Source: an uncultured Lentisphaeria bacterium
GTDB taxonomy: Bacteria; Fidelibacterota; UBA8477; JABMPR01
DNA length: 64,000 nt
Assembly (NCBI GenBank): GCA_964508765.1
Contig: CAZDVD010000004.1
Span: 66,784-130,783 of the forward strand
Reading direction: 5' to 3'
How positions within the stretch are numbered: the first letter of the stretch is position 1; each line of letters begins with the position of its first letter. Positions 5,115-52,729 of the stretch are shown here, one piece after another. Position numbers and translations under genes: made by a program. The notes under the pieces are model-generated. The model worked only from the letters and a program-made list of their open reading frames with translations, made no database searches and had not been told where the DNA came from.

Positions 5115-6104
5115 TTAGTTTCCATATATTGAGAAATCCTCAATCATTTTATCAAAGAGGGTGTTGAGGTGAGTATCAATCTTCTGACGTTGTGGGGCTG
5201 CTTCATACCAGGCAACAATTTCCCTGGCGCCTTCTTCAAACGGAATCTCAGCCGAAAAATCTGGAACCAGCGTCTTAATTTTTGAATTGTCAAATATCAT
5301 GCTGTGGGCTTTGTCTCCCAATAACCCCTCGCCAAAAACAGGATCATAGCGGGCAATGATCTCAGAAGGAATATGAACGAGTTTTGGCTCAATGCCCAAG
5401 GCAGATCCCAGGTGATGAAAGATATTGTCCCAGGATAACCATTCATCTGAAGTGATATGATAGGCCTCATTGATGGCTTCCTGCTTGCCCAACAATCCAA
5501 CCAAACCTTTGGCAAAATCCTTGTGGTGGGTGAGGGTCCAAATGGAAGCACCATCGCCATGGGAAACCACAGGGAGGCCCTGTTTTAGGCGCATGAGTGT
5601 GGTGATCCCGCCTTGCAGGGGAATAAGCGTTTTGTCGTAGGTATGAGAGGGACGCACAATGGTGTAAGGAAAACCTTGCTCCTGATACGTTTTCCTCAAG
5701 AGGTCTTCGCAGGCAATTTTCTTGCGGGCATATTCCCAAAATGGATTGCTTAAAATTGTATCTTCGGTTATGGGCAACCTGCTGGGAGGTGTTTCATAGA
5801 GCGCAGCCGTGCTAATGTAAACATACTGCTCGGTTCGATCAGTAAACATATCAATATCACTCTGAATATGCTCTGTCGTGAAAGCTATCCAATTGACCAC
5901 GACATCAAAATGATGATCCCCTAAGGCAGCCTGTGTCTCAGCAAAATTTCGGATGTCTGCCTGGATGGTTTTCACCCCTGAGATGGGTCTCAAGCTCGAG
6001 CTTTTACCTCTATTCAGATGGTAGAGATCAATACCTCTCGAAACAGATAACTCTGAACAAGCTGAGCTGATGATACCGGTTCCACCAATAAATAATACTT
6101 TCAT
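5115..6104 (-). CDS. NAD-dependent epimerase/dehydratase family protein (extended SDR)
   Basis: 329 aa with the N-terminal Rossmann motif MKVLFIGGTGIISSA. Confidence 0.75.
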   Translation of the reverse strand: MKVLFIGGTGIISSACSELSVSRGIDLYHLNRGKSSSLRPISGVKTIQADIRNFAETQAALGDHHFDVVVNWIAFTTEHIQSDIDMFTDRTEQYVYISTAALYETPPSRLPITEDTILSNPFWEYARKKIACEDLLRKTYQEQGFPYTIVRPSHTYDKTLIPLQGGITTLMRLKQGLPVVSHGDGASIWTLTHHKDFAKGLVGLLGKQEAINEAYHITSDEWLSWDNIFHHLGSALGIEPKLVHIPSEIIARYDPVFGEGLLGDKAHSMIFDNSKIKTLVPDFSAEIPFEEGAREIVAWYEAAPQRQKIDTHLNTLFDKMIEDFSIYGN

Positions 6105-19558: not shown

Positions 19559-21115
19559 TCAATAATCGTCGGTGATGTCTTTACCTTGTTTCTTACTGAT
19601 CACTCGGAATTCATCCATGTTTTTGGATTCATCCTCGACAATTTCAACTTTGATAAAATGCTGCCACTGAATAGAGCGGACCACATTTTTACGACCAGAT
19701 CTTAAAAATTTCGCCAATTCAGGATTGACCACCAGTTGAAGTCTAAATTCACGTTTCTTGGAATGAAAGCGACGGAACCAACCCTCAATCTGTGTGGTAA
19801 GGGCAGCTTTGGACATAATGCGACCCCGTCCCTTACAAACGGGACATTCCTCAGTAGCAGAAAGCAATAAGCTGAGACGAATGCGTTGGCGGGTCATTTC
19901 CAGGAGACCGAAATCGGAAATGTAACTTACAGCTACCTTAGCACGGTCTTTACGTAATTCACGTCGGAGTTCGTAATAGACTTTCTTCTTATTGTCCTCA
20001 CGGGACATGTCAATAAAGTCAATAACGATTAATCCACCCAGATCTCTGAGACGTAGTTGCTGAGCAATCGCTCTGGCAGATTCTAGATTGATCTTCACAG
20101 CATTGGCTTCATGGTCTTTGCGGCCAATAAATTTTCCTGAATTCACATCGATGGAAACCAGAGCTTCCGTCTGTTCAATAACGATAGAAGCGCCACTCTT
20201 CAGGCCCACTTTGCGAGACATGGAGATATCGATAGCCTTCTGGACATTATAGGCATCAAACATGGGCAATTTTTTATTGTAATGAATGAGTCGATCCAGC
20301 AATTGGGGAGCAGCCCCTTTGAGATAGCTGCTGGTTTGCTTGTACATAGATTTATTATCAGTGATGACACGCTGAACATCATTGGTAAAAAGATCCCGAA
20401 TAAGACTGGAGACCGTCTCCATGTCTTTATAGACAAGCACAGGACCAGGTTTGCTTTTTACCACCTTTTCCATGCGTTTGTAGGAGTCCATGAGGTTATT
20501 TAAATCAGCACCCAGGGCTTCATCATCTTTGCCTTCTGTAACCGTTCTGGCGATCAAACCAAAGCCTTCAGGTTTCAATTCCTGACAAGTACGTCTAAGG
20601 CGACGCCGCTCAAAATTGTTGTAAATTTTCCGCGAGATTCCAATAGAATTTGAATTCGGTACCAAAACCAGGAAACGACCTGGAAGGGAGATATTCGTTG
20701 TAACTCGAGCCCCTTTACCCATATAAGGTTCTTTGATAACCTGAACGAGAATCTGCTGTCCCGTCTTTAATTTTGGGGCATTGTGCCTTCTATGATCATG
20801 ACGTTGATTCTGATTTCTTGAACGACCACGCCCACCTTTGCGAGGTTTTTCATCCTCATCGTCCTCATCCTGATCCAGGAGAAAGGATTCACCTTCTACC
20901 TCAGAAAAGGGCAAAAATGCATTGGCTCCAATGCCAATATCAACAAAAGCCGCCTGCATACCAGGCAACACATTTTCAACAACGCCTTTGTAGATATTGC
21001 CAACAATCCTGATGTTTTCGGGTTTTTCAACATAAAGTTCTACGAGAACGTCATCCTCATGGATGGCAATCCGAGTTTCCTTATGTGTTTGGTTTATAAA
21101 GATGTCCTTCTTCAT
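19559..21115 (-). CDS. rng: Rne/Rng family ribonuclease (RNase G-like)
   Basis: 518 aa with an N-terminal S1 domain (IVGNIYKGVVENVLPGMQAAFVDIG) and the DNase I-like catalytic core. A basic/acidic insert (DEDDEDEKPRKGGRGRSRNQNQRHDHRRH) lies inside the S1 region. Confidence 0.85.
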   Translation of the reverse strand: MKKDIFINQTHKETRIAIHEDDVLVELYVEKPENIRIVGNIYKGVVENVLPGMQAAFVDIGIGANAFLPFSEVEGESFLLDQDEDDEDEKPRKGGRGRSRNQNQRHDHRRHNAPKLKTGQQILVQVIKEPYMGKGARVTTNISLPGRFLVLVPNSNSIGISRKIYNNFERRRLRRTCQELKPEGFGLIARTVTEGKDDEALGADLNNLMDSYKRMEKVVKSKPGPVLVYKDMETVSSLIRDLFTNDVQRVITDNKSMYKQTSSYLKGAAPQLLDRLIHYNKKLPMFDAYNVQKAIDISMSRKVGLKSGASIVIEQTEALVSIDVNSGKFIGRKDHEANAVKINLESARAIAQQLRLRDLGGLIVIDFIDMSREDNKKKVYYELRRELRKDRAKVAVSYISDFGLLEMTRQRIRLSLLLSATEECPVCKGRGRIMSKAALTTQIEGWFRRFHSKKREFRLQLVVNPELAKFLRSGRKNVVRSIQWQHFIKVEIVEDESKNMDEFRVISKKQGKDITDDY

Positions 21116-44087: not shown

Positions 44088-44687
44088 TTATTCTCCCAGA
44101 AAGGAGCGAATACCAAATTTTATGAGCAGTTGCTGAGTATCGATATCGTTGACATCAGTACCTTTTTCGAAATTGTACTCTGCCTCAACTGTGAGACCCA
44201 CATTTTTTGCGAGATTTAATAAGAGACCAGCACTGGCAACCAGACCGAGCTCAGATTCATCCCTGAAAATTTCATCATCATTATAGAGAGTTTTATTCAC
44301 GAGGTAGTTTGCACCCCCTTTGATAAAGGGGGTTAGTTCGCTATTTTTTCCACCGAAAAAGAAATATACCCTTGGTCCAAGTGACAGGGTGACATTTTCA
44401 AGAACATTGGGATCGTCCTCATCACCGCTTTCATCCATTTCCTTTCCATAGCCCAGATCAATTCCAGCTGCAAACTGGGGAAACAAAAATAAAGCGATAT
44501 CAGAATTGATGCCCCATACTGAGGATCTCAAGTCCTCACTCAGATCCGTTTGATAAGATCCTGTTCCTGAGATCATAATAGTTCCAGAGCCCCGGGATGT
44601 TGAATAGCTTGATTGAGCAAACGCTGCGGTGGCGAATGTCAAAACAGTGAGTGTCATAAAGATTTTTTTCATATTTTTCTCCTTCAT
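44088..44687 (-). CDS. outer-membrane beta-barrel protein (OmpW/porin-like)
   Basis: 199 aa with a signal peptide (MKKIFMTLTVLTFATAAFA). It shows the alternating amphipathic beta-strand pattern and a C-terminal aromatic-rich terminal strand. Confidence 0.5.
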   Translation of the reverse strand: MKEKNMKKIFMTLTVLTFATAAFAQSSYSTSRGSGTIMISGTGSYQTDLSEDLRSSVWGINSDIALFLFPQFAAGIDLGYGKEMDESGDEDDPNVLENVTLSLGPRVYFFFGGKNSELTPFIKGGANYLVNKTLYNDDEIFRDESELGLVASAGLLLNLAKNVGLTVEAEYNFEKGTDVNDIDTQQLLIKFGIRSFLGE

Positions 44688-44784
44688 TAACCAGTACTAA
44701 TTAAAATCCACAAAAAGTAGCCTGTCTTCAATGTTTATATGTGATGGTGATCATTTTTTATCTGAGTTGTGATTTCAAACACAA

Positions 44785-45126
44785 TTAGTCCCAATTCTCA
44801 CTTCTGAACTTGTTTATGCGCACATCCGTTCTGGTGAGCAAGCCTTCCTTGAGCATGGGCTCGATTTGATCAACAAAACTGTCAATTTTTGGAATCCTTC
44901 CAACAAACTCCAGCAGAAGAGGTAAATTATCGGACATGCGGAGGATTTTCATTGAATGAATCTCACCATGTGCGCCAAAACCTTCTCTACCCCGAATGAC
45001 AGTGCCGCCAGATAATCCATTCTCCAGAGCTATTTCCAGAAGGAGCTCATATAAAGCGCGACCCTCATATTTATCATCCTCTCCAATAAATATGCACAAC
45101 TTTTGTCCGGTATAATCTTCATTCAT
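44785..45126 (-). CDS. DUF190 (COG1993, P-II-like fold) protein
   Basis: 113 aa. KLCIFIGEDDKYEGRALYELLLEIALENGLSGGTVIRGREGFGAHG...NLPLLLEFVG is the DUF190 pattern. It is a paralogue of the N-terminal domain of the next gene. Confidence 0.7.
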   Translation of the reverse strand: MNEDYTGQKLCIFIGEDDKYEGRALYELLLEIALENGLSGGTVIRGREGFGAHGEIHSMKILRMSDNLPLLLEFVGRIPKIDSFVDQIEPMLKEGLLTRTDVRINKFRSENWD

Positions 45127-45283
45127 GATGTTCCCTGCAAACTCTAAAAAGGTTCAAAAAACTTCACAACAATTTGCACGAATGATACGAATCTAAAACA
45201 ATAAATCAAATTACTTCATTGGTTTCTTTAGATTTTTTGTAGAACAAGGGAATTGTATATCAAAGATTGTTTTTTGTGTTTAA

Positions 45284-46498
45284 TCACTTTTTAAATAGCT
45301 CTGAAAAATAATTTTTCATATCTTCTTCTTTGTTATCCTTATCCTGAATCTTCTGGTCTTTACTGGCACTTTCACCCTGTTCATCCCCCGATGAATCAAC
45401 CGGCTCTTTATCCGAAGTTGTTTTACCCACAGAATCTATATCTGTGTCAACCATACTGGCCCCGCCGACCTCTTTAAGCATATCGTCAAAAGTGCTTTCA
45501 AATTTCTCGTTACGCTCATCAAATAACTTGTCAATATCTTCTTCTGTCTTCGGTTCTGCAGATTCAGTTCCATTAGATTTATCCTCCACGGTTCCGTGTG
45601 AGTCATCCATTTCGAACTTGTCCGCACTACTTTCTTCAGCCTGCGTTTCACTCATATCTGTCAATTGGTATACTGGATCGTCTTCATTAGGTCCTTCATC
45701 AGGTCCTTCATCAATAAATGAATCTCTTTCAGCATCAGGAGCATCATTCACAGCATTTTCTTGGATATGATTGTCATCCATCGAAGTATCTGGTTCGTCC
45801 TCATCTCCCTCCGCTCCAACAAATGAATCCCCTGCAACGGGGGGATCAGGAACCTCTTTTACTTCATCTTCACGAATGCTCTCTGGGTCTGTATCCAAAG
45901 ATTCAAAGGCAGGGCTGGAATTGTCGTCGTCATCCTCAAATGAAGGAATCTCGATATGAGGTTCAGCGGTATCAACCTCGTCTTCCTCTGTCGTCTGATC
46001 CTGATCCAGTTCAAGAAATTCAGATTCACTTTTTTTATCTTTATCCACCTTAAATTCCTGGCCTGGTGGGTGTGAGTCGGGGATGTCTGCCCCTTCAACA
46101 TCTTCATCAAATATTTGTGATTGATCCTCGTTTTCCTGGTCTTGAAAATCGGTAGTGTCTTCATCGGTTGAGTTGAATTTGGTGATCCGGACATCTGTTC
46201 TGGTAAAAAGCCCATCTTTTATCATCGGTTGAATACGTTCGATATATCTATCAATTCTATTCGTCATGCCCTGAAATTCCAAAACCACAGGTAAGTTTTC
46301 AGAGGACCTAAGGATCTTTAGCCTGGTGGATTCATCCTGAGCTCCAAAAAAACCTTTATCCCCTATGGTGACAGTGCCACCTGACAAACGGCTATTGAAG
46401 GCAATCTCTAAAAGCAGTTCATAAAGAACGATGCCTTCATACTTATCGTTTTTACTGATAAAAATACAGAGCTTCTCGCCTGGGTAATCTTCATGCAT
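45284..46498 (-). CDS. DUF190 (P-II-like) domain fused to a ~290-aa poly-acidic low-complexity C-terminal tail
   Basis: 404 aa. The first ~110 aa are paralogous to the protein at 44785-45126 (KLCIFISKNDKYEGIVLYELLLEIAF...GGTVTIGDKGFFG...NLPVVLEFQG). The remainder is D/E/S/T-rich with no TM segment or motif. Confidence 0.65.
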   Translation of the reverse strand: MHEDYPGEKLCIFISKNDKYEGIVLYELLLEIAFNSRLSGGTVTIGDKGFFGAQDESTRLKILRSSENLPVVLEFQGMTNRIDRYIERIQPMIKDGLFTRTDVRITKFNSTDEDTTDFQDQENEDQSQIFDEDVEGADIPDSHPPGQEFKVDKDKKSESEFLELDQDQTTEEDEVDTAEPHIEIPSFEDDDDNSSPAFESLDTDPESIREDEVKEVPDPPVAGDSFVGAEGDEDEPDTSMDDNHIQENAVNDAPDAERDSFIDEGPDEGPNEDDPVYQLTDMSETQAEESSADKFEMDDSHGTVEDKSNGTESAEPKTEEDIDKLFDERNEKFESTFDDMLKEVGGASMVDTDIDSVGKTTSDKEPVDSSGDEQGESASKDQKIQDKDNKEEDMKNYFSELFKK

Positions 46499-46516
46499 AT
46501 TTGAATTCCATTTTCA

Positions 46517-46915
46517 TCACCACAACTTAGCGATACTAACCCCAGCCCACACGGCAATAAGTGTCCCAACAATATTGGCAAGAATATTCAAACCAGCAAA
46601 CATCCACTCTCCATTTCGCATGAGATTGAGTGTCTCTAAAGAGAAGGTTGAATAGGTGGTAAACGCACCTAGCACACCAACTAGGAGAAACAATCTCATC
46701 TCCTGATTTACAATCATCTTTTCCAGAAAAAGCGTGGCAAAGAGTCCCAGAACAAAACTACCCAACAGGTTAACAGATAAGGTCCCCAGGGGGAATCTGT
46801 CGCTCAATTTCTGAGCCAGACCACTGATCCAATAACGTCCGACAGCACCCAAAAATCCACCCAGGCCAATAGCAATAATTTTACTCATATCCATCATTTT
46901 ATTGCTCCACTTCAT
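46517..46915 (-). CDS. crcB: fluoride channel CrcB/Fluc
   Basis: 132 aa with 4 TM helices. Motifs GGFLGAVGRY, GTLSVNLLGSFVLG and GVLGAFTTYSTFSLE match the CrcB signature. Confidence 0.85.
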   Translation of the reverse strand: MKWSNKMMDMSKIIAIGLGGFLGAVGRYWISGLAQKLSDRFPLGTLSVNLLGSFVLGLFATLFLEKMIVNQEMRLFLLVGVLGAFTTYSTFSLETLNLMRNGEWMFAGLNILANIVGTLIAVWAGVSIAKLW

Positions 46916-47753
46916 GGGGCAGTGGAATCAAGTAGACTTCCTCACAGACCACGGGTTTCATACTTTTAAAATATAACCATCCCGCGCTGAAGAGCACCAC
47001 CGAGACAATAATCCAGGTAAGCCCCAGGTCACCCAGTGTGGATGCTTCTTCATCCAACCCCAAAAACAGACCGGAAAATGCTGAAAGATTAAACAGGGCA
47101 TGGGTTAGCATGGGAATCAGAATATTGCCTGTCTTCGCCATAAGCCAGGCCAACAAAACACCCAAGGCGAGGAGCTCTAACATCGCTGGCAAATAAAACA
47201 GGTAGCCCACATGGAAGAGGGCAAAAATGACGGTGGGAATCACCATAGATGGTATGAGTGATCCAAAATGATAAAACAAGCTTTGCTGAAGCAGTCCCCT
47301 GAAAAGGAATTCTTCAACAATCGGGGCAACCAGGATTGCTGCAGAAATCAGCACAATATTGGCAAGAATACCCCCATCAAAGAGTGTTTCGTCCAAAGCC
47401 CGTAAAAAGTCTGGTACAGGGAAATATGGTAAAATAAGGACCTCAAATACAGAAACCAGACCAATGATTCCACCAATAAATAATACCGACATGGCCACAG
47501 TCACTGGAGACACCTTATGGAAGGGAAGCACATCAAAAAAGCCAAGCTTACGCTGGTTTAATATGAACAGGGGTGGAACCAGAATAGCGATTTCACTAAA
47601 GAGCATGACGAGTCGATCAAGGAGTTCATTGTTCTCAATTCCGGAAATCATACTCTGGAGGCTCAGGCCAACAAATAAACCTAGAAACATACTTGCAGCC
47701 ACCATGAGGTAGGCTTCTCGCGTACTAAAAATATGGAATGAAAATCGTTTCAA
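46899..47753 (-). CDS. CPBP family intramembrane glutamic endopeptidase (CAAX protease/Abi)
   Basis: 284 aa polytopic protein with motif 1 PIVEEFLFRGLLQ and motif 2 FALFHV. The track start is TTG; the probable ATG is at 47705. The 3' end overlaps crcB by 17 bp. Confidence 0.7.
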   Translation of the reverse strand: MKRFSFHIFSTREAYLMVAASMFLGLFVGLSLQSMISGIENNELLDRLVMLFSEIAILVPPLFILNQRKLGFFDVLPFHKVSPVTVAMSVLFIGGIIGLVSVFEVLILPYFPVPDFLRALDETLFDGGILANIVLISAAILVAPIVEEFLFRGLLQQSLFYHFGSLIPSMVIPTVIFALFHVGYLFYLPAMLELLALGVLLAWLMAKTGNILIPMLTHALFNLSAFSGLFLGLDEEASTLGDLGLTWIIVSVVLFSAGWLYFKSMKPVVCEEVYLIPLPHEVEQ

Positions 47754-47866
47754 TCAACGCCATCTTTTCTAAGAGTTATTTGCTTCTAGAAACAAAAACG
47801 GGGCGAAAATAAAAGTTGAGATTACAACCATCACTTTCACCCCATGAGAATTGTCAGTGAGTCAGG

Positions 47867-48310
47867 TTATTCTTTAATAACCCAGACTTTAACTTCAGCT
47901 TTGATATCTGTGGCAACCTTGATGGGAACATTATAGATACCCAGTGCTTTGAGGGGTTCCTCAAGCAGGATGTCACGTTTGTCAATCTCATAGCCTTTTG
48001 CGGCCAGGAGTTCAGCAATATCAGCAGCTGTAACGGCACCAAAAACCTTATCTTCCTCACCAACCTTCACAGAGGTTTCGAGGGAGATGTTTCCGAGCTT
48101 GGCAGCCAGTTGCTCAGCCTGTGCAGTTGCACGGGCGTTGCGGTTATCCTTCAATTTTTTCTCTTCTTCGAAAACACGAGAAAAACTACGGGTTGCTGGA
48201 TAAGCAAGCTTCTGAGGAATTAGATAATTCCTGGCATAACCATCTTTTACATTGACGGTTTTGCCAGCCTGCCCTAGAGATTCAATATCTTCACGTAAAA
48301 TAATTTTCAT
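47867..48310 (-). CDS. rplI: 50S ribosomal protein L9
   Basis: 147 aa. MKIILREDIESLGQAGKTVNVKDGYARNYLIP is the canonical L9 N-terminus. Confidence 0.9.
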   Translation of the reverse strand: MKIILREDIESLGQAGKTVNVKDGYARNYLIPQKLAYPATRSFSRVFEEEKKLKDNRNARATAQAEQLAAKLGNISLETSVKVGEEDKVFGAVTAADIAELLAAKGYEIDKRDILLEEPLKALGIYNVPIKVATDIKAEVKVWVIKE

Positions 48311-48326
48311 GATCAGATCCTTTCTC

Positions 48327-48560
48327 TTAGGCGTTCTTTACGTCATTGGTATATGGCAGTAAAGCAATATTCCGGGCACGTTTGATAGCTGTTACCAGTG
48401 ATCTTTGATGCAGGGAGCAAGTACCTGTAATACGACGTGGTAAAATTTTTCCCTGCTCTGTCACAAAGCGACGTAGCATGGAGGGGTTTTTGTAATCAAT
48501 TTCCATTTTCTTATTTTCACAGAATTTGCAAATCTTTTTTCTATAGGTGAACATTTTCAT
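48327..48560 (-). CDS. rpsR: 30S ribosomal protein S18
   Basis: 77 aa. [38 protein letters not shown]...LVTAIKRAR is canonical S18. Confidence 0.9.
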
Positions 48561-48591: not shown

Positions 48592-49254
48592 TTACTCTGC
48601 GTCAGCAGGCTTTTCAGCTTCTTCTTCAGGTTTTTCGTCTGCGGATTCTTCAACTGCAGGTTCAGCTTCAGCTACGGCAGGCTCTTCAGCCACAATTGCT
48701 TCTTCAACAACAACTTCAGTTGCTTCCTCTGTGACTTCAACCGGTGTCTCTTTAACCACTTCGGCTACTTCAGCTTTTTCTTCAGCTGCTTCAACAACAA
48801 CTTCAGCGCCATCTTCAGATGCTACTGCTGCTGGTGCTTCAGCTGGTTTTTCTTCATAGCGTCTTGGTCTGTGACCATCTCTGGAATCTCTAGAATCTCT
48901 ACCTCCAGGACGTCTTCCACGGTCAGCCTCGAAAGCCTGTGGAACAGTCAGTGTTTCAAAATCAGGAAACTCATCGAGACGAATAGTCATATAATGAAGC
49001 ACGCCTGATTCGATTTCAAATTCACGAGCAAGCTCAGAGATATCTGGGTTTTCGCCTTGAAAATGCATTAAAACATAATTTCCATAGCGTTCTTTATCGA
49101 TAGCGTAAGCCAGCTTGCGTTTGCCCCAATGTTGGGTATTTGCAAGCTCACCGCCTACATTCTTCAGGACTTCTTCCACTCTTGCAACAACGGCGGAGAT
49201 TCCTTCACTATCAAAGTTGATATTTACAATATAAAGGCACTCATACTTTTTCAA
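48592..49254 (-). CDS. rpsF: 30S ribosomal protein S6 with a ~110-aa Glu/Ala/Pro-rich C-terminal extension
   Basis: The N-terminal 100 aa are canonical S6 ([11 protein letters not shown]...[10 protein letters not shown]). The remainder is a low-complexity acidic tail. Confidence 0.85.
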
Positions 49255-52051: not shown

Positions 52052-52729
52052 TTATTTTTCGTCACTACCTGTATCAGATTCTTTTTTCTCACCGTCTTCT
52101 GATTCTGATCCTTCTTCATCCTCGAATTCCAGATCATCTTCATCAACTTCAACAACAACTTCTTCCATTTTCTGTGGTAGAACGACAGAAATGATTGTGA
52201 TGTCTTCAGCAATGAGAACTTCATAGTCATCACTCTGGATATCACTGGCGTGGATACCGTCACCGATGTTCAATTCAGATACATCGACTTCAATGGAATC
52301 AGGTACATCCTCACCTTTACAGCGAACCACAACCTCATGGATAGGCTGCTGGAGAACACCACCTTCTTGTACACCAAGTGCCAGTCCATTAGCGATCACG
52401 GATACGGGAATTTCGATGATGTCACGAAGACGTACACCGAAGAAATCCATATGCAGGATTTTGTCTGTTACTGGATGCCATTGGACATCTTTCACCATGG
52501 CTCGGCGTTGCTCGCCGTCAATAGTGATGTTAAAAATTTGTTCTCCTGAATGCATAGCTTCGCGCAGATGTGTTTCGGTCATAACATAGGACTGAGCTTC
52601 TTCACCACCTGAATAGAAATTCACGGGGACATAGCCATTCCTGCGGAGTGCTTTTGCAGCTTTCCGACCAAATTCACTTCTCTGCTCAATCTGCAATTCG
52701 AAACGTTCTTTTTTCTTTGCTTGAGCCAT
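52052..52729 (-). CDS. rplY: 50S ribosomal protein L25/general stress protein Ctc with an acidic C-terminal tail
   Basis: 225 aa with a Ctc-form L25 N-terminal beta-barrel and C-terminal domain, followed by a D/E-rich tail. Confidence 0.85.
   Translation of the reverse strand: MAQAKKKERFELQIEQRSEFGRKAAKALRRNGYVPVNFYSGGEEAQSYVMTETHLREAMHSGEQIFNITIDGEQRRAMVKDVQWHPVTDKILHMDFFGVRLRDIIEIPVSVIANGLALGVQEGGVLQQPIHEVVVRCKGEDVPDSIEVDVSELNIGDGIHASDIQSDDYEVLIAEDITIISVVLPQKMEEVVVEVDEDDLEFEDEEGSESEDGEKKESDTGSDEK

Follow-up and report, generated by a model that had tools for sequence, protein, structure and literature searches.

A PII-like DUF190 protein with a long, predicted disordered acidic tail beside the fluoride channel gene crcB in marine SAR406 bacteria

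The tailed gene and its cluster

The window (the whole stretch of 64,000 nucleotides that was analysed) comes from a marine SAR406 (Marinimicrobia) bacterium. It carries a gene whose 404-residue product had been described in the initial annotation as containing a DUF190 domain. Both the open reading frame (45284..46498, minus strand) and a Pfam DUF190 match covering aa 9-105 agree with this. An identical protein, P0001, is present on public contigs. The gene lies within the following cluster, given in the order of transcription:

46899..47753, minus strand: CPBP/Rce1-like intramembrane protease (Pfam PF02517, E 4e-19; synteny)
46517..46915, minus strand: crcB, fluoride channel Fluc (Pfam CRCB, E 8e-30; NCBIfam TIGR00494, 108 bits against a cutoff of 80.45)
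45284..46498, minus strand: DUF190 gene with tail, 404 aa, a PII-like head followed by an acidic disordered tail (ORF; Pfam PF02641)
44785..45126, minus strand: canonical short DUF190 paralogue, 113 aa, tail-less (Pfam, 102.5 bits; BLASTP)
44088..44687, minus strand: small outer-membrane beta-barrel protein (OMP) (Pfam OMP_b-brl, E 6.6e-9; synteny)

The conserved cluster starts with the CPBP protease gene, which shares 17 nt with crcB. A gap of 18 nt separates crcB from the tailed gene downstream, which has the same orientation, and the two are adjacent in every locus examined (~30). The short DUF190 gene follows 157 nt downstream of the tailed gene, and the OMP gene is the conserved last member. 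This operon order (CPBP protease-crcB-DUF190-OMP) is kept in all ~30 loci. No fluoride riboswitch reached the Rfam gathering score over the window, nor was any found at E<=10 over positions 44600-48400. The idea that the CPBP protease might act on the conserved C-terminus in the manner of a CTERM-sorting enzyme was considered and dropped: the NCBIfam MrtJ/MrtS scores are far below their cutoffs, and the lack in the tail of a transmembrane segment plus Arg cluster also counts against such sorting.

The head, a diverged DUF190 paralogue

46169..46498, minus strand: PII-like (DUF190) head, aa 1-110 (AF2 fold; Foldseek; PDB sequence matches; paralogue alignment)

The head matches the Pfam profile PF02641 (DUF190, UPF0166) with 62.9 bits (cutoff 23.4, E 3.6e-17), aa 9-105 aligning with positions 2-97 of its 97 positions. 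This score is lower than that of the short paralogue (102.5 bits). AF2 predicts the beta-alpha-beta-beta-alpha-beta, PII-like arrangement of DUF190 proteins, with elements E8-14, H20-35, E39-45, E71-77, H79-94 and E103-108. The best Foldseek matches are 2dcl and 1o51, accompanied by SbtB, CPII and GlnK (7egk, 7r31, 5d4p, 6yc6), and a PDB sequence search retrieves 2dcl (E 3e-14) and 1o51 (E 3.5e-7). Similarity to canonical PII proteins (GlnB/GlnK) is at the fold level only (12-20% identity in Foldseek); the head is not a member of that family by sequence, the Pfam P-II profile giving no match at E<=0.01. A word search with the N-domain alone returned 2 fragments. The head has a net charge of -1 and a dN/dS of 0.03-0.18.

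Canonical DUF190 proteins carry the sequence xRGxxGFG followed by a basic loop, whereas the tailed head reads TIGDKGFFGAQDEST at this position. All tailed proteins share TIGDKGFFG, in which the Arg is changed to Ile and one residue is inserted, and the loop that follows is acidic (AQDEST) instead of basic. In our alignment xRGxxGFG is present in PH1503, TM0021, a distant protein from locus L030 and all short paralogues, and we infer that it is a hallmark of the family. The short paralogue of the window, 60% identical to the tailed head (BLASTP, E 2e-44) and 75-89% identical to its own orthologues in other loci, retains RGREGFGAHGEIHS where the tailed head has the acidic loop and no canonical Arg. 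Judged from these alignments, the tailed head is a diverged paralogue of the canonical short DUF190 gene with an altered loop, a relation that the initial annotation missed. In a neighbor-joining tree the sister group of the tailed heads comprises all Marinimicrobia short copies (90% bootstrap). The stem branch of the tailed clade is long, however, and long-branch attraction is possible, so that this tree does not fix the timing of the duplication.

Compared with the known members of DUF190/UPF0166/COG1993 (2DCL, PH1503; 1O51, TM0021; Streptomyces cattleya FlJ), the tailed protein has in common the PF02641 match, the PII-like fold and the adjacency to crcB. It differs by the lost Arg of RGxxGFG, the one-residue insertion, the acidic T-loop and a clade-only tail of 294 aa, while the canonical members examined are ~100-127 aa long and tail-less. 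In the 2DCL crystal the DUF190 protein is a homotrimer (three chains).

The contrast between the two paralogues raises the possibility of an intramolecular or inter-paralogue regulator, in which motifs or acidic stretches of the tail would fold back on their own head, or on the basic T-loop of the short paralogue in mixed trimers, and auto-inhibit the binding of a ligand or partner. The acidic loop and missing Arg of the tailed head, set against the sequence retained by the short copy, are consistent with this, as are the adjacency of the two genes in most loci and the position of the first tail motif, just ~10 residues past the head. On the other hand, the short gene is missing from six loci that have the tailed one, the net charge of -1 leaves no electrostatic target on the tailed head, and a fold-back switch would not require ~290 residues. 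We give this possibility a small chance.

Composition, conservation and motifs of the tail

45284..46168, minus strand: acidic intrinsically disordered tail, aa 111-404 plus stop (294 aa, 885 nt) (composition; pLDDT; orthologues)
45682..45713, minus strand: 12-bp x 2.7 in-frame micro-duplication (DEGPDEGP) (Tandem Repeats Finder)

The interval 45284-46168, proposed earlier to encode an acidic tail of ~290 residues, corresponds exactly to aa 111-404 plus the stop codon, and the 294 residues are indeed acidic (35% D+E, 8% K+R, net charge -80). The most frequent residues are D (19%), E (16%), S (9%), K (7%), T (6%) and P (6%). The tail had been called almost entirely D/E/S/T/P/N, which overstates a share of 59%; hydrophobic or aromatic residues account for 18%. 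AF2 assigns pLDDT <50 to aa 111-318 and 346-386, the exceptions being two helices, and finds no confident tertiary packing (pTM 0.23-0.27). Together with an FCR of 0.43 and an NCPR of -0.27, the low pLDDT over most of the tail fits the earlier suggestion of an entropic bristle. The micro-duplication is the sole DNA tandem repeat detected in the tailed gene by Tandem Repeats Finder, and a DNA repeat origin of the tail was rejected on this ground. Antisense ORFs were also rejected as genes: 4 open antisense stretches of at least 50 aa are observed, for 4.8 +/- 1.3 expected from 500 codon shuffles. They are by-products, as the initial annotation had proposed, of codon composition and not of the low-complexity repeat to which it attributed them.

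Acidic tails also occur on two ribosomal proteins of the window, S6 and L25. Acidity is thus not specific to the fluoride locus.

The tailed gene has ~30 orthologues, all from Marinimicrobia and all with the tail kept in frame, so that the outcome that would have refuted the initial annotation (tail absent or frameshifted) did not occur. MAG labels (SI053, SI036, BS150m) hint at a habitat in oxygen-minimum zones and other anoxic marine or brackish waters. More than 20 of them (21+, 45-74% identity) align from M1 through the C-terminal motif. Among 21 orthologues the tail is 222-319 aa long, with a net charge of -59 to -109 and 32-40% D+E. NCPR stays at about -0.25 to -0.27, and this charge density is kept even in P0026, the single member with a Pro/Glu-rich spacer (18% Pro). 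Twelve orthologous genes contain 0 stops, and all their indels and micro-repeats are multiples of 3. An exhaustive comparison of the tail profile with 1.84 billion representative proteins matched 10 clusters, all from the tailed-DUF190 family, which bears out the view that the architecture is unusual. A word-index search with the tail gave 5 matches, again all tailed-family members; the PDB profile search gave 0 matches at E<=10, NCBIfam no match, and Pfam at E<=10 noise only (Cadherin_4, E 0.065). From these comparisons, the tail is real, in frame, presumably translated, conserved and confined to a SAR406 clade.

The same data bear on a neutral origin, by slippage-driven expansion or as an annotation or assembly artefact, which would leave the tail with no function of its own. 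The tail as a whole has a dN/dS of 0.35-0.45 (0.1-0.3 in the conserved islands described below), but the spacers evolve fast (0.4-0.56), small tandem duplications such as one of 81 bp x 2 in L010 alter their length, and a frameshifted variant (P0023) exists on one 507-bp contig, all of which would agree with a neutral origin. However, dN/dS is below 1 even in spacers, tail length stays within its 222-319 aa range, the frame is intact up to the conserved C-terminal motif in ~30 independent assemblies, and invariant residues occur up to 400 aa from the start. The comparative data largely refute this explanation, to which we attach hardly any probability. Moreover, six loci contain no DUF190 gene besides the tailed one, which is therefore not a dispensable by-product.

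A second proposal is that the polyanion acts as a cation sponge, binding or buffering Mg2+ or Ca2+ (together with MgF+ or CaF+) close to the fluoride channel, thereby modulating fluoride toxicity or export. The conserved charge density of all orthologues and the adjacency of the tailed gene to crcB in every locus point in this direction, as does the presence of a DUF190 gene, flJ, in a fluorination gene cluster (PMC9173684). Against it, the acidic positions are poorly conserved while aromatic and hydrophobic motifs are conserved instead. The EF-hand loop (PROSITE PS00018) and DxDxDG are found in 0/21 tails, and the protein of the window has no D.[DN].[DN]G sequence; a low-affinity, calsequestrin-like mode of ion binding is still conceivable. 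The ~40 divalent ions that a chain might hold would be few compared with millimolar cytoplasmic Mg2+, acidity is shared with S6 and L25, and sister lineages operate the same operon with a tail-less short DUF190 alone. Buffering of Mg2+, Ca2+ or fluoride by the tail is less favoured and seems unlikely.

Conserved segments of the tail are as follows:

46109..46138, minus strand: motif 1, QENEDQSQIF, aa 121-130 (orthologue alignment)
46004..46024, minus strand: SEFLELD, aa 159-165 (consensus SEFLEPD), moderately conserved (orthologue alignment)
45929..45952, minus strand: EIPSFEDD, aa 183-190, one [DE][ITV]PxF copy (orthologue alignment)
45641..45676, minus strand: PVYQLTDMSETQ, aa 275-286, PVLQLTDxSETQ island (orthologue alignment)
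45461..45544, minus strand: amphipathic helix A, EEDIDKLFDERNEKFESTFDDMLKEVGG, aa 319-346 (AF2; hydrophobic moment)
45287..45343, minus strand: C-terminal motif DKDNKEEDMKNYFSELFKK, aa 386-404 (AF2 terminal amphipathic helix; orthologue alignment)

The alignment of 21 orthologues reveals four conserved islands (aa 123-130, 275-286, 325-345 and 386-402) separated by fast-evolving acidic spacers. The islands are short and aromatic or hydrophobic in character, and the invariant tail residues that they hold are of the types N, Q, F, Y, D and H; N123, Q126, F130, F326, F337, D386, Y397, F398 and F402 are invariant. In the island at aa 275-286, Q278, L279, D281, S283 and E284 are at least 90% conserved, and [DE][ITV]PxF occurs in 1-3 copies in 17/21 orthologues. 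Helix A (AF2 helix 320-345) includes F326 and F337, and the terminal helix spans aa 391-403; they have the highest hydrophobic moments of the tail (muH 0.51-0.55 for the terminal helix). When the C-terminal 93 aa were folded alone with AF2, both helices were predicted at pLDDT 83-87 (~83 for helix A, ~87 for aa 388-403), joined by a disordered link of 37 aa. The spacing Y-F-x-x-L-F at the C-terminus is common to all 21 orthologues, 7 of which have 1-2 extra residues after the terminal motif (range 0-2). The last 10 aa, KNYFSSLFKK, form the only net-positive part of the tail: their net charge is 0 to +4 in 21/21 orthologues, that of the preceding 30 aa -4 to -12. The statement that the tail has no hydrophobic segment or recognisable motif was therefore wrong. 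As far as the alignment tells, selection holds constant the aromatic and hydrophobic motifs and the two predicted amphipathic helices, not particular acidic residues.

Motif 1 deserves a separate comment. Its Qxx[IM]F core, present in 21/21 orthologues, fits the relaxed beta-clamp-binding pattern. Taken with the net charge of -80 on an extended polyanion, this might suggest a nucleic-acid mimic or electrostatic decoy for polyamines or for basic proteins that bind DNA or RNA, or a device for exclusion from nucleoid and ribosome-rich zones. However, Qxx[IM]F is short and permissive, and the cluster encodes membrane proteins, with no functionally linked DNA- or RNA-related gene in the context. 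Known DNA mimics are folded proteins with patterned charges, which also speaks against this. The mimic is very improbable in our view, and a beta-clamp-binding role of Qxx[IM]F is a low-probability lead.

A possible tether

The favoured reading, by analogy with the systems discussed below, is that the tail forms a disordered polyanionic tether equipped with motifs for interaction and, at its end, a multivalent anchor helix; we put this at a little under even odds (roughly 45%). Duplication and divergence of a DUF190 gene would have produced a head, presumably trimeric, carrying a selectively maintained polyanionic extension. Its acidic spacers would keep the chain expanded and self-repelling, and the short aromatic or hydrophobic linear motifs between them, followed by the two amphipathic helices, would make the tail modular. 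The whole would then work as a flexible tether or scaffold built as folded oligomer, disordered linker and conserved terminal peptide. Trimer formation, the tether function and the binding of a membrane or partner by the terminal helix are inferred. Alternatively, a clade-wide habit of acidic tails for solubility (cf. S6 and L25) could account for most of the chain with no need of a tether role.

This layout resembles that of FtsZ and SSB, with a folded N-terminal oligomerising domain, a fast-evolving linker that varies in length and, at the C-terminus, a short conserved motif. There is no homology to either protein, and the linker of the tailed DUF190 protein is far more acidic and holds several conserved motifs. 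The acidic tip of SSB ends ...DDDIPF-COOH and needs a free C-terminal Phe, whereas the tip of the tailed protein is basic (...LFKK), is extended by 1-2 residues in 7/21 orthologues, and [DE][ITV]PxF is found only internally.

The terminal helix itself resembles the membrane-targeting helices of MinD, FtsA and FlhG. It shares with them the extreme C-terminal position, a length of ~10-15 residues, an alternation of two hydrophobic, two polar and two hydrophobic residues (FL-KR-LF in MinD, YF-SS-LF here) and a net positive charge, and is predicted to be a short amphipathic helix of the MinD type. According to a review on MinD (PMC6803595), membrane binding by such helices requires at least two copies. 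This valency-dependent binding would suit a trimer, which would display three copies of the KNYFSSLFKK helix. They could form an anchor of low affinity, dependent on valency, that binds the inner membrane or a partner and holds the PII-like head and the motifs near the CrcB and CPBP membrane proteins of the same cluster. Unlike that of MinD, the helix has acidic residues before it and extends from a polyanion, not directly from a folded ATPase; its membrane role is a prediction, and the acidic EEDM just before it would oppose binding to anionic lipids.

The head shares its fold with GlnK (of GlnK-AmtB), SbtB (of SbtB-SbtA) and CPII, and its gene likewise adjoins a membrane transport gene. It differs from them in lacking sequence-level membership, and GlnK, SbtB and CPII are not known to carry a long disordered tail. 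Fluc is a twofold antiparallel dimer, a symmetry that does not match a threefold PII-like trimer, so that a plug of the GlnK-AmtB kind is not obvious. A published genome analysis (PMC3543383) put forward, as speculation, a GlnK-like modulation of channels by DUF190 proteins; the literature searchable here assigns no function to DUF190, and no papers were found on crcB with PII-like proteins or GlnB. A bolder version of the tether, which we hold to be doubtful, would make the duplicated protein a membrane-tethered multivalent hub. The three acidic arms of each trimer, with 5-7 docking motifs each and an anchor helix, would organise or gate the fluoride-channel module (CrcB, CPBP protease and OMP). 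If true, this would be the first member of the PII superfamily working via a disordered scaffold, and would provide a handle on DUF190 function.

The PII-like DUF190 family is widespread and linked to fluoride genes, and the conserved peptide motifs of the tailed copy could serve as baits for its partners. Bacteria seldom have long disordered regions that are under selection. The tailed gene offers a clean case of one arising and then being shaped, charge density and a few motifs being held as the spacers drift and lengthen through in-frame micro-duplications. The SAR406 clade, abundant, uncultivated and marine, provides a natural experiment in which a single operon exists in three states: with the short gene alone, with both genes, or with the tailed gene alone.

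The tailed DUF190 gene and its neighbourhood

The DUF190 domain (PF02641) spans aa 9-105 of the tailed protein (E 3.6e-17, 62.9 bits). The poly-acidic tail placed at 45284-46168 by the initial annotation corresponds exactly to aa 111-404 and the stop codon.

45284..46498, minus strand: tailed DUF190 gene, ORF of 404 aa
45682-45713, minus strand: 12-bp x 2.7 micro-duplication (DEGPDEGP), the sole report of Tandem Repeats Finder

The tail contains 19% D and 16% E (D+E 35%) and 8% K+R, with a net charge of -80. The acidic tract is therefore real and extreme, but its description as almost entirely D/E/S/T/P/N was overstated since these six residues make up 59%; hydrophobic and aromatic residues account for 18%. 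It had also been taken for a low-complexity repeat, whereas at the DNA level the single micro-duplication is the only repeat reported. The antisense ORFs covering the region are indeed by-products, but of codon composition, with no DNA repeat behind the tail: four antisense open stretches of at least 50 aa are observed vs 4.8 +/- 1.3 expected from 500 codon shuffles.

The gene lies in a cluster with the order CPBP/Rce1-like intramembrane protease, crcB, tailed DUF190, short DUF190 (113 aa), small OMP beta-barrel and phosphotransacetylase-family gene, preceded at a distance of ~110 nt by the ribosomal genes S6-S18-L9. The crcB product scores above the NCBIfam CrcB equivalog cutoff. An 18-nt gap (46499-46516) separates the end of crcB from the tailed gene, and public gene calls place the crcB start 18 nt later (product of 126 aa). 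From its earliest start, the CPBP protease ORF overlaps crcB by 17 nt (46899-46915). This protease was considered as a CTERM-sorting enzyme and rejected, its matches to the MrtJ and MrtS models being weak and far under the cutoffs. No fluoride riboswitch (crcB motif) was detected upstream of the cluster, even at E<=10 (window 44600-48400). Read from its earliest possible start, the downstream OMP gene overlaps the tailed-gene stop by 4 nt in many loci, among them the compared public loci listed here.

OMP start/tailed stop overlap, earliest possible OMP start: L003 6269-6272; L004 6287-6290; L009 5254-5257; others

The OMP start lies ~20 nt further downstream in public gene calls. Translational coupling of the OMP gene to the tailed gene is possible.

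Conservation and composition of the tail

An identical protein (P0001) occurs on public metagenome contigs. A database search retrieved 22 proteins (45-100% identity); most are 330-430 aa long, and most align across the full query. Named relatives, labelled "DUF190 domain-containing protein" by NCBI, come from "Candidatus Marinimicrobia / Neomarinimicrobiota" MAGs (phylum Fidelibacterota, SAR406, FCB group); the tailed gene is present in 8 species-representative genomes and in further metagenome loci. Among 21 aligned orthologues, tails range from 222 to 319 aa, with 32-40% D+E and a net charge of -59 to -109. No internal stop was found in 12 orthologous genes, and indels and micro-repeats are all multiples of three. 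By the Nei-Gojobori method, dN/dS is 0.03-0.18 in the head and about 0.35-0.45 in the tail, where it falls to 0.1-0.3 in conserved islands vs 0.4-0.56 in spacers; the least saturated pair of loci (L003/L010, dS 0.2) gives 0.40 for the tail. The initial annotation had proposed that a tail frameshifted or missing in orthologues would indicate an artefact. This is not the case since the orthologues retain it in frame, without stops and at dN/dS below 1. Sequence comparison thus indicates that the tail is real and maintained, and neutral expansion or artefact, contradicted by both the alignment and the dN/dS values, is extremely improbable.

An 81-bp unit (27 aa) is duplicated in tandem and in frame within the tail of locus L010, at 5519-5676 (gene positions 1089-1246); all other micro-repeats in 15 orthologous genes have shorter periods (6, 9, 12 or 24 bp). 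Tail growth therefore proceeds by duplications that keep the frame. One database protein, P0023 (135 aa, 507-bp contig), is a tailed variant that leaves the frame just past the head and reads ...NSPRRRRGSRASSKRGSVSSL. With about 30 other assemblies in frame, the probable cause is a frameshift introduced by sequencing or assembly, a contig-end effect or a rare allele.

An exhaustive search of 1.84 billion representative proteins with a profile built from 16 tails gave 10 matches at E<=0.001: 9 tailed DUF190 proteins and a 130-aa fragment of a tail from this family. At E<=10 the tail had no match in the PDB and only noise in Pfam, and NCBIfam contains no model for the tailed protein.

The tail had been reported to lack any hydrophobic segment or motif. 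Alignment of the 21 orthologues shows otherwise, with conserved islands and invariant residues (N123, Q126, F130, F326, F337, D386, Y397, F398 and F402).

aa 123-130: conserved island NEDQSQIF
aa 275-286: conserved island PVLQLTDxSETQ
aa 325-345: conserved island LFDESNEKFESTFDDMLKQAG
aa 386-402: conserved island DKNHTEEDMKNYFSSLF

Weaker motifs are SEFLEPD and the recurring [DE][ITV]PxF (1-3 copies in 17/21 orthologues). AlphaFold2 run on the family alignment predicts the PII-like head, while tail pLDDT is below 50 outside helices 320-345 and 391-403. Prediction restricted to the last 93 residues places the helices at aa 319-346 (pLDDT ~83) and aa 388-403 (~87), joined by a 37-residue link with pLDDT <50; this C-terminal region shows no confident packing (pTM 0.23). 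Nowhere in the tail is the helical hydrophobic moment higher than in these two segments (0.55-0.61 vs a mean of 0.23 +/- 0.13). In all 21 orthologues the final ten residues carry a net charge of 0 to +4 and the 30 preceding residues -4 to -12, so that charge is locally reversed at the extreme C-terminus of a chain whose net charge is -80.

P0026, which diverges most from the other members, has PEPKPEP-type sequence (18% Pro) in place of much of the acidic spacer and retains an FCR of 0.43, an NCPR of -0.25 and every motif. Together with the alignment, this implies that what is conserved is charge density, approximate length, a few aromatic/hydrophobic motifs and the two helices, a pattern characteristic of disordered linkers with short linear motifs. 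A polyanionic tail binding or buffering divalent cations near the fluoride channel would agree with the crcB neighbourhood and with a charge density that is conserved. However, the tails have no dedicated binding loops, specific acidic positions are not conserved and sister lineages do without such a device, making this unlikely. The charge and the Qxx[IM]F pattern alone would suggest a nucleic-acid mimic or decoy, but the pattern is permissive and we consider this very improbable.

The PII-like head and its paralogue

With 60% identity to the 113-aa canonical DUF190 protein, whose gene lies 157 nt downstream, the head is on sequence grounds a diverged paralogue of that protein. A fold search confirmed the PII-like fold, matching 2dcl, 1o51, SbtB, CPII and GlnK. 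Every tailed head has the loop TIGDKGFFGAQDEST (aa 43-57, window 46330-46370). At the same position, short paralogues, PH1503, TM0021 and the distant DUF190 of locus L030 carry xRGxxGFG and then a basic loop. In the tailed copy, an Arg shared across the family has therefore been lost, one residue has been gained and the T-loop is now acidic, suggesting that ligand or partner binding may be altered. The opposition of acidic (tailed) and basic (short) loops could reflect regulation by the tail, through fold-back or between paralogues. This fits poorly with loci containing only the tailed copy and appears doubtful.

Three locus states are observed. Five loci from more distant relatives (L025-L029) have only the short copy in the same operon. 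Both copies are present in the order crcB-tailed-short in the window, L001, L002 and L016, and crcB-short-tailed in every other two-copy locus, i.e. most loci (L003, L007, L008, L010, L011, L014, L017-L024); this difference points to local rearrangement. Only the tailed copy is found in L004, L005, L006, L009, L012 and L013. In a neighbour-joining tree of heads, tailed heads are monophyletic (100% bootstrap) and all Marinimicrobia short copies together form their sister group (90%). However, the tailed heads have a long stem branch that may have influenced this placement, and the duplication may be older or younger than the split from the short-only lineages. Tailed-only loci are scattered over no fewer than three parts of this tree, suggesting that the locus has repeatedly lost its short copy and kept the tailed one.

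In the literature searched, DUF190 is a known family with no assigned function, appearing only as FlJ of fluorination clusters (PMC9173684) and as a speculated GlnK-like channel modulator (PMC3543383). The same literature contains no report linking crcB to PII-like proteins, and the tailed architecture, its motifs and the three-state evolutionary pattern are undescribed there.

A possible tether or scaffold

Sequence comparison and structure prediction thus describe a conserved polyanionic tail that is predicted to be disordered, carries internal motifs and ends in a predicted basic amphipathic helix. The gene for the tail and the PII-like head that bears it comes immediately after crcB. By analogy with PII-like proteins and the three chains in 2DCL, the head would form a trimer, giving three long acidic arms per trimer. 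Self-repulsion could hold these arms expanded, the terminal helix would anchor them to the membrane or a partner, and internal motifs might bring other proteins close to the CrcB/CPBP membrane module. The terminal helix resembles the membrane-targeting sequences of MinD, FtsA and FlhG in its C-terminal position, length (10-15 residues), Y-F-x-x-L-F spacing and flanking lysines. Membrane binding by the MinD helix needs two or more copies (PMC6803595), and a trimer would supply at least two. This valency and the MinD-like helix lead us to favour a tether or scaffold, with a probability of roughly 45%.

Several observations argue against it. Acidic residues lie just before the terminal helix. A threefold PII-like trimer does not match the symmetry of the twofold dimer of the CrcB channel (Fluc). 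In addition, two ribosomal proteins of the window also have acidic tails.

48592-49254, minus strand: ribosomal protein S6, 220 aa, Pfam domain aa 3-92
52052-52729, minus strand: L25/TL5, terminal 40-aa tail with 49% D+E

The S6 tail following the domain is 128 aa long, Ala/Glu/Val-rich and of net charge -27; S6 measures 217-237 aa in related loci. A clade-wide tendency to acidic C-terminal tails may thus explain part of the DUF190 tail. The RNase E/G homologue (518 aa; 19559-21115, minus strand) also has a brief acidic stretch, LDQDEDDEDE, in or close to the region of its S1 domain.
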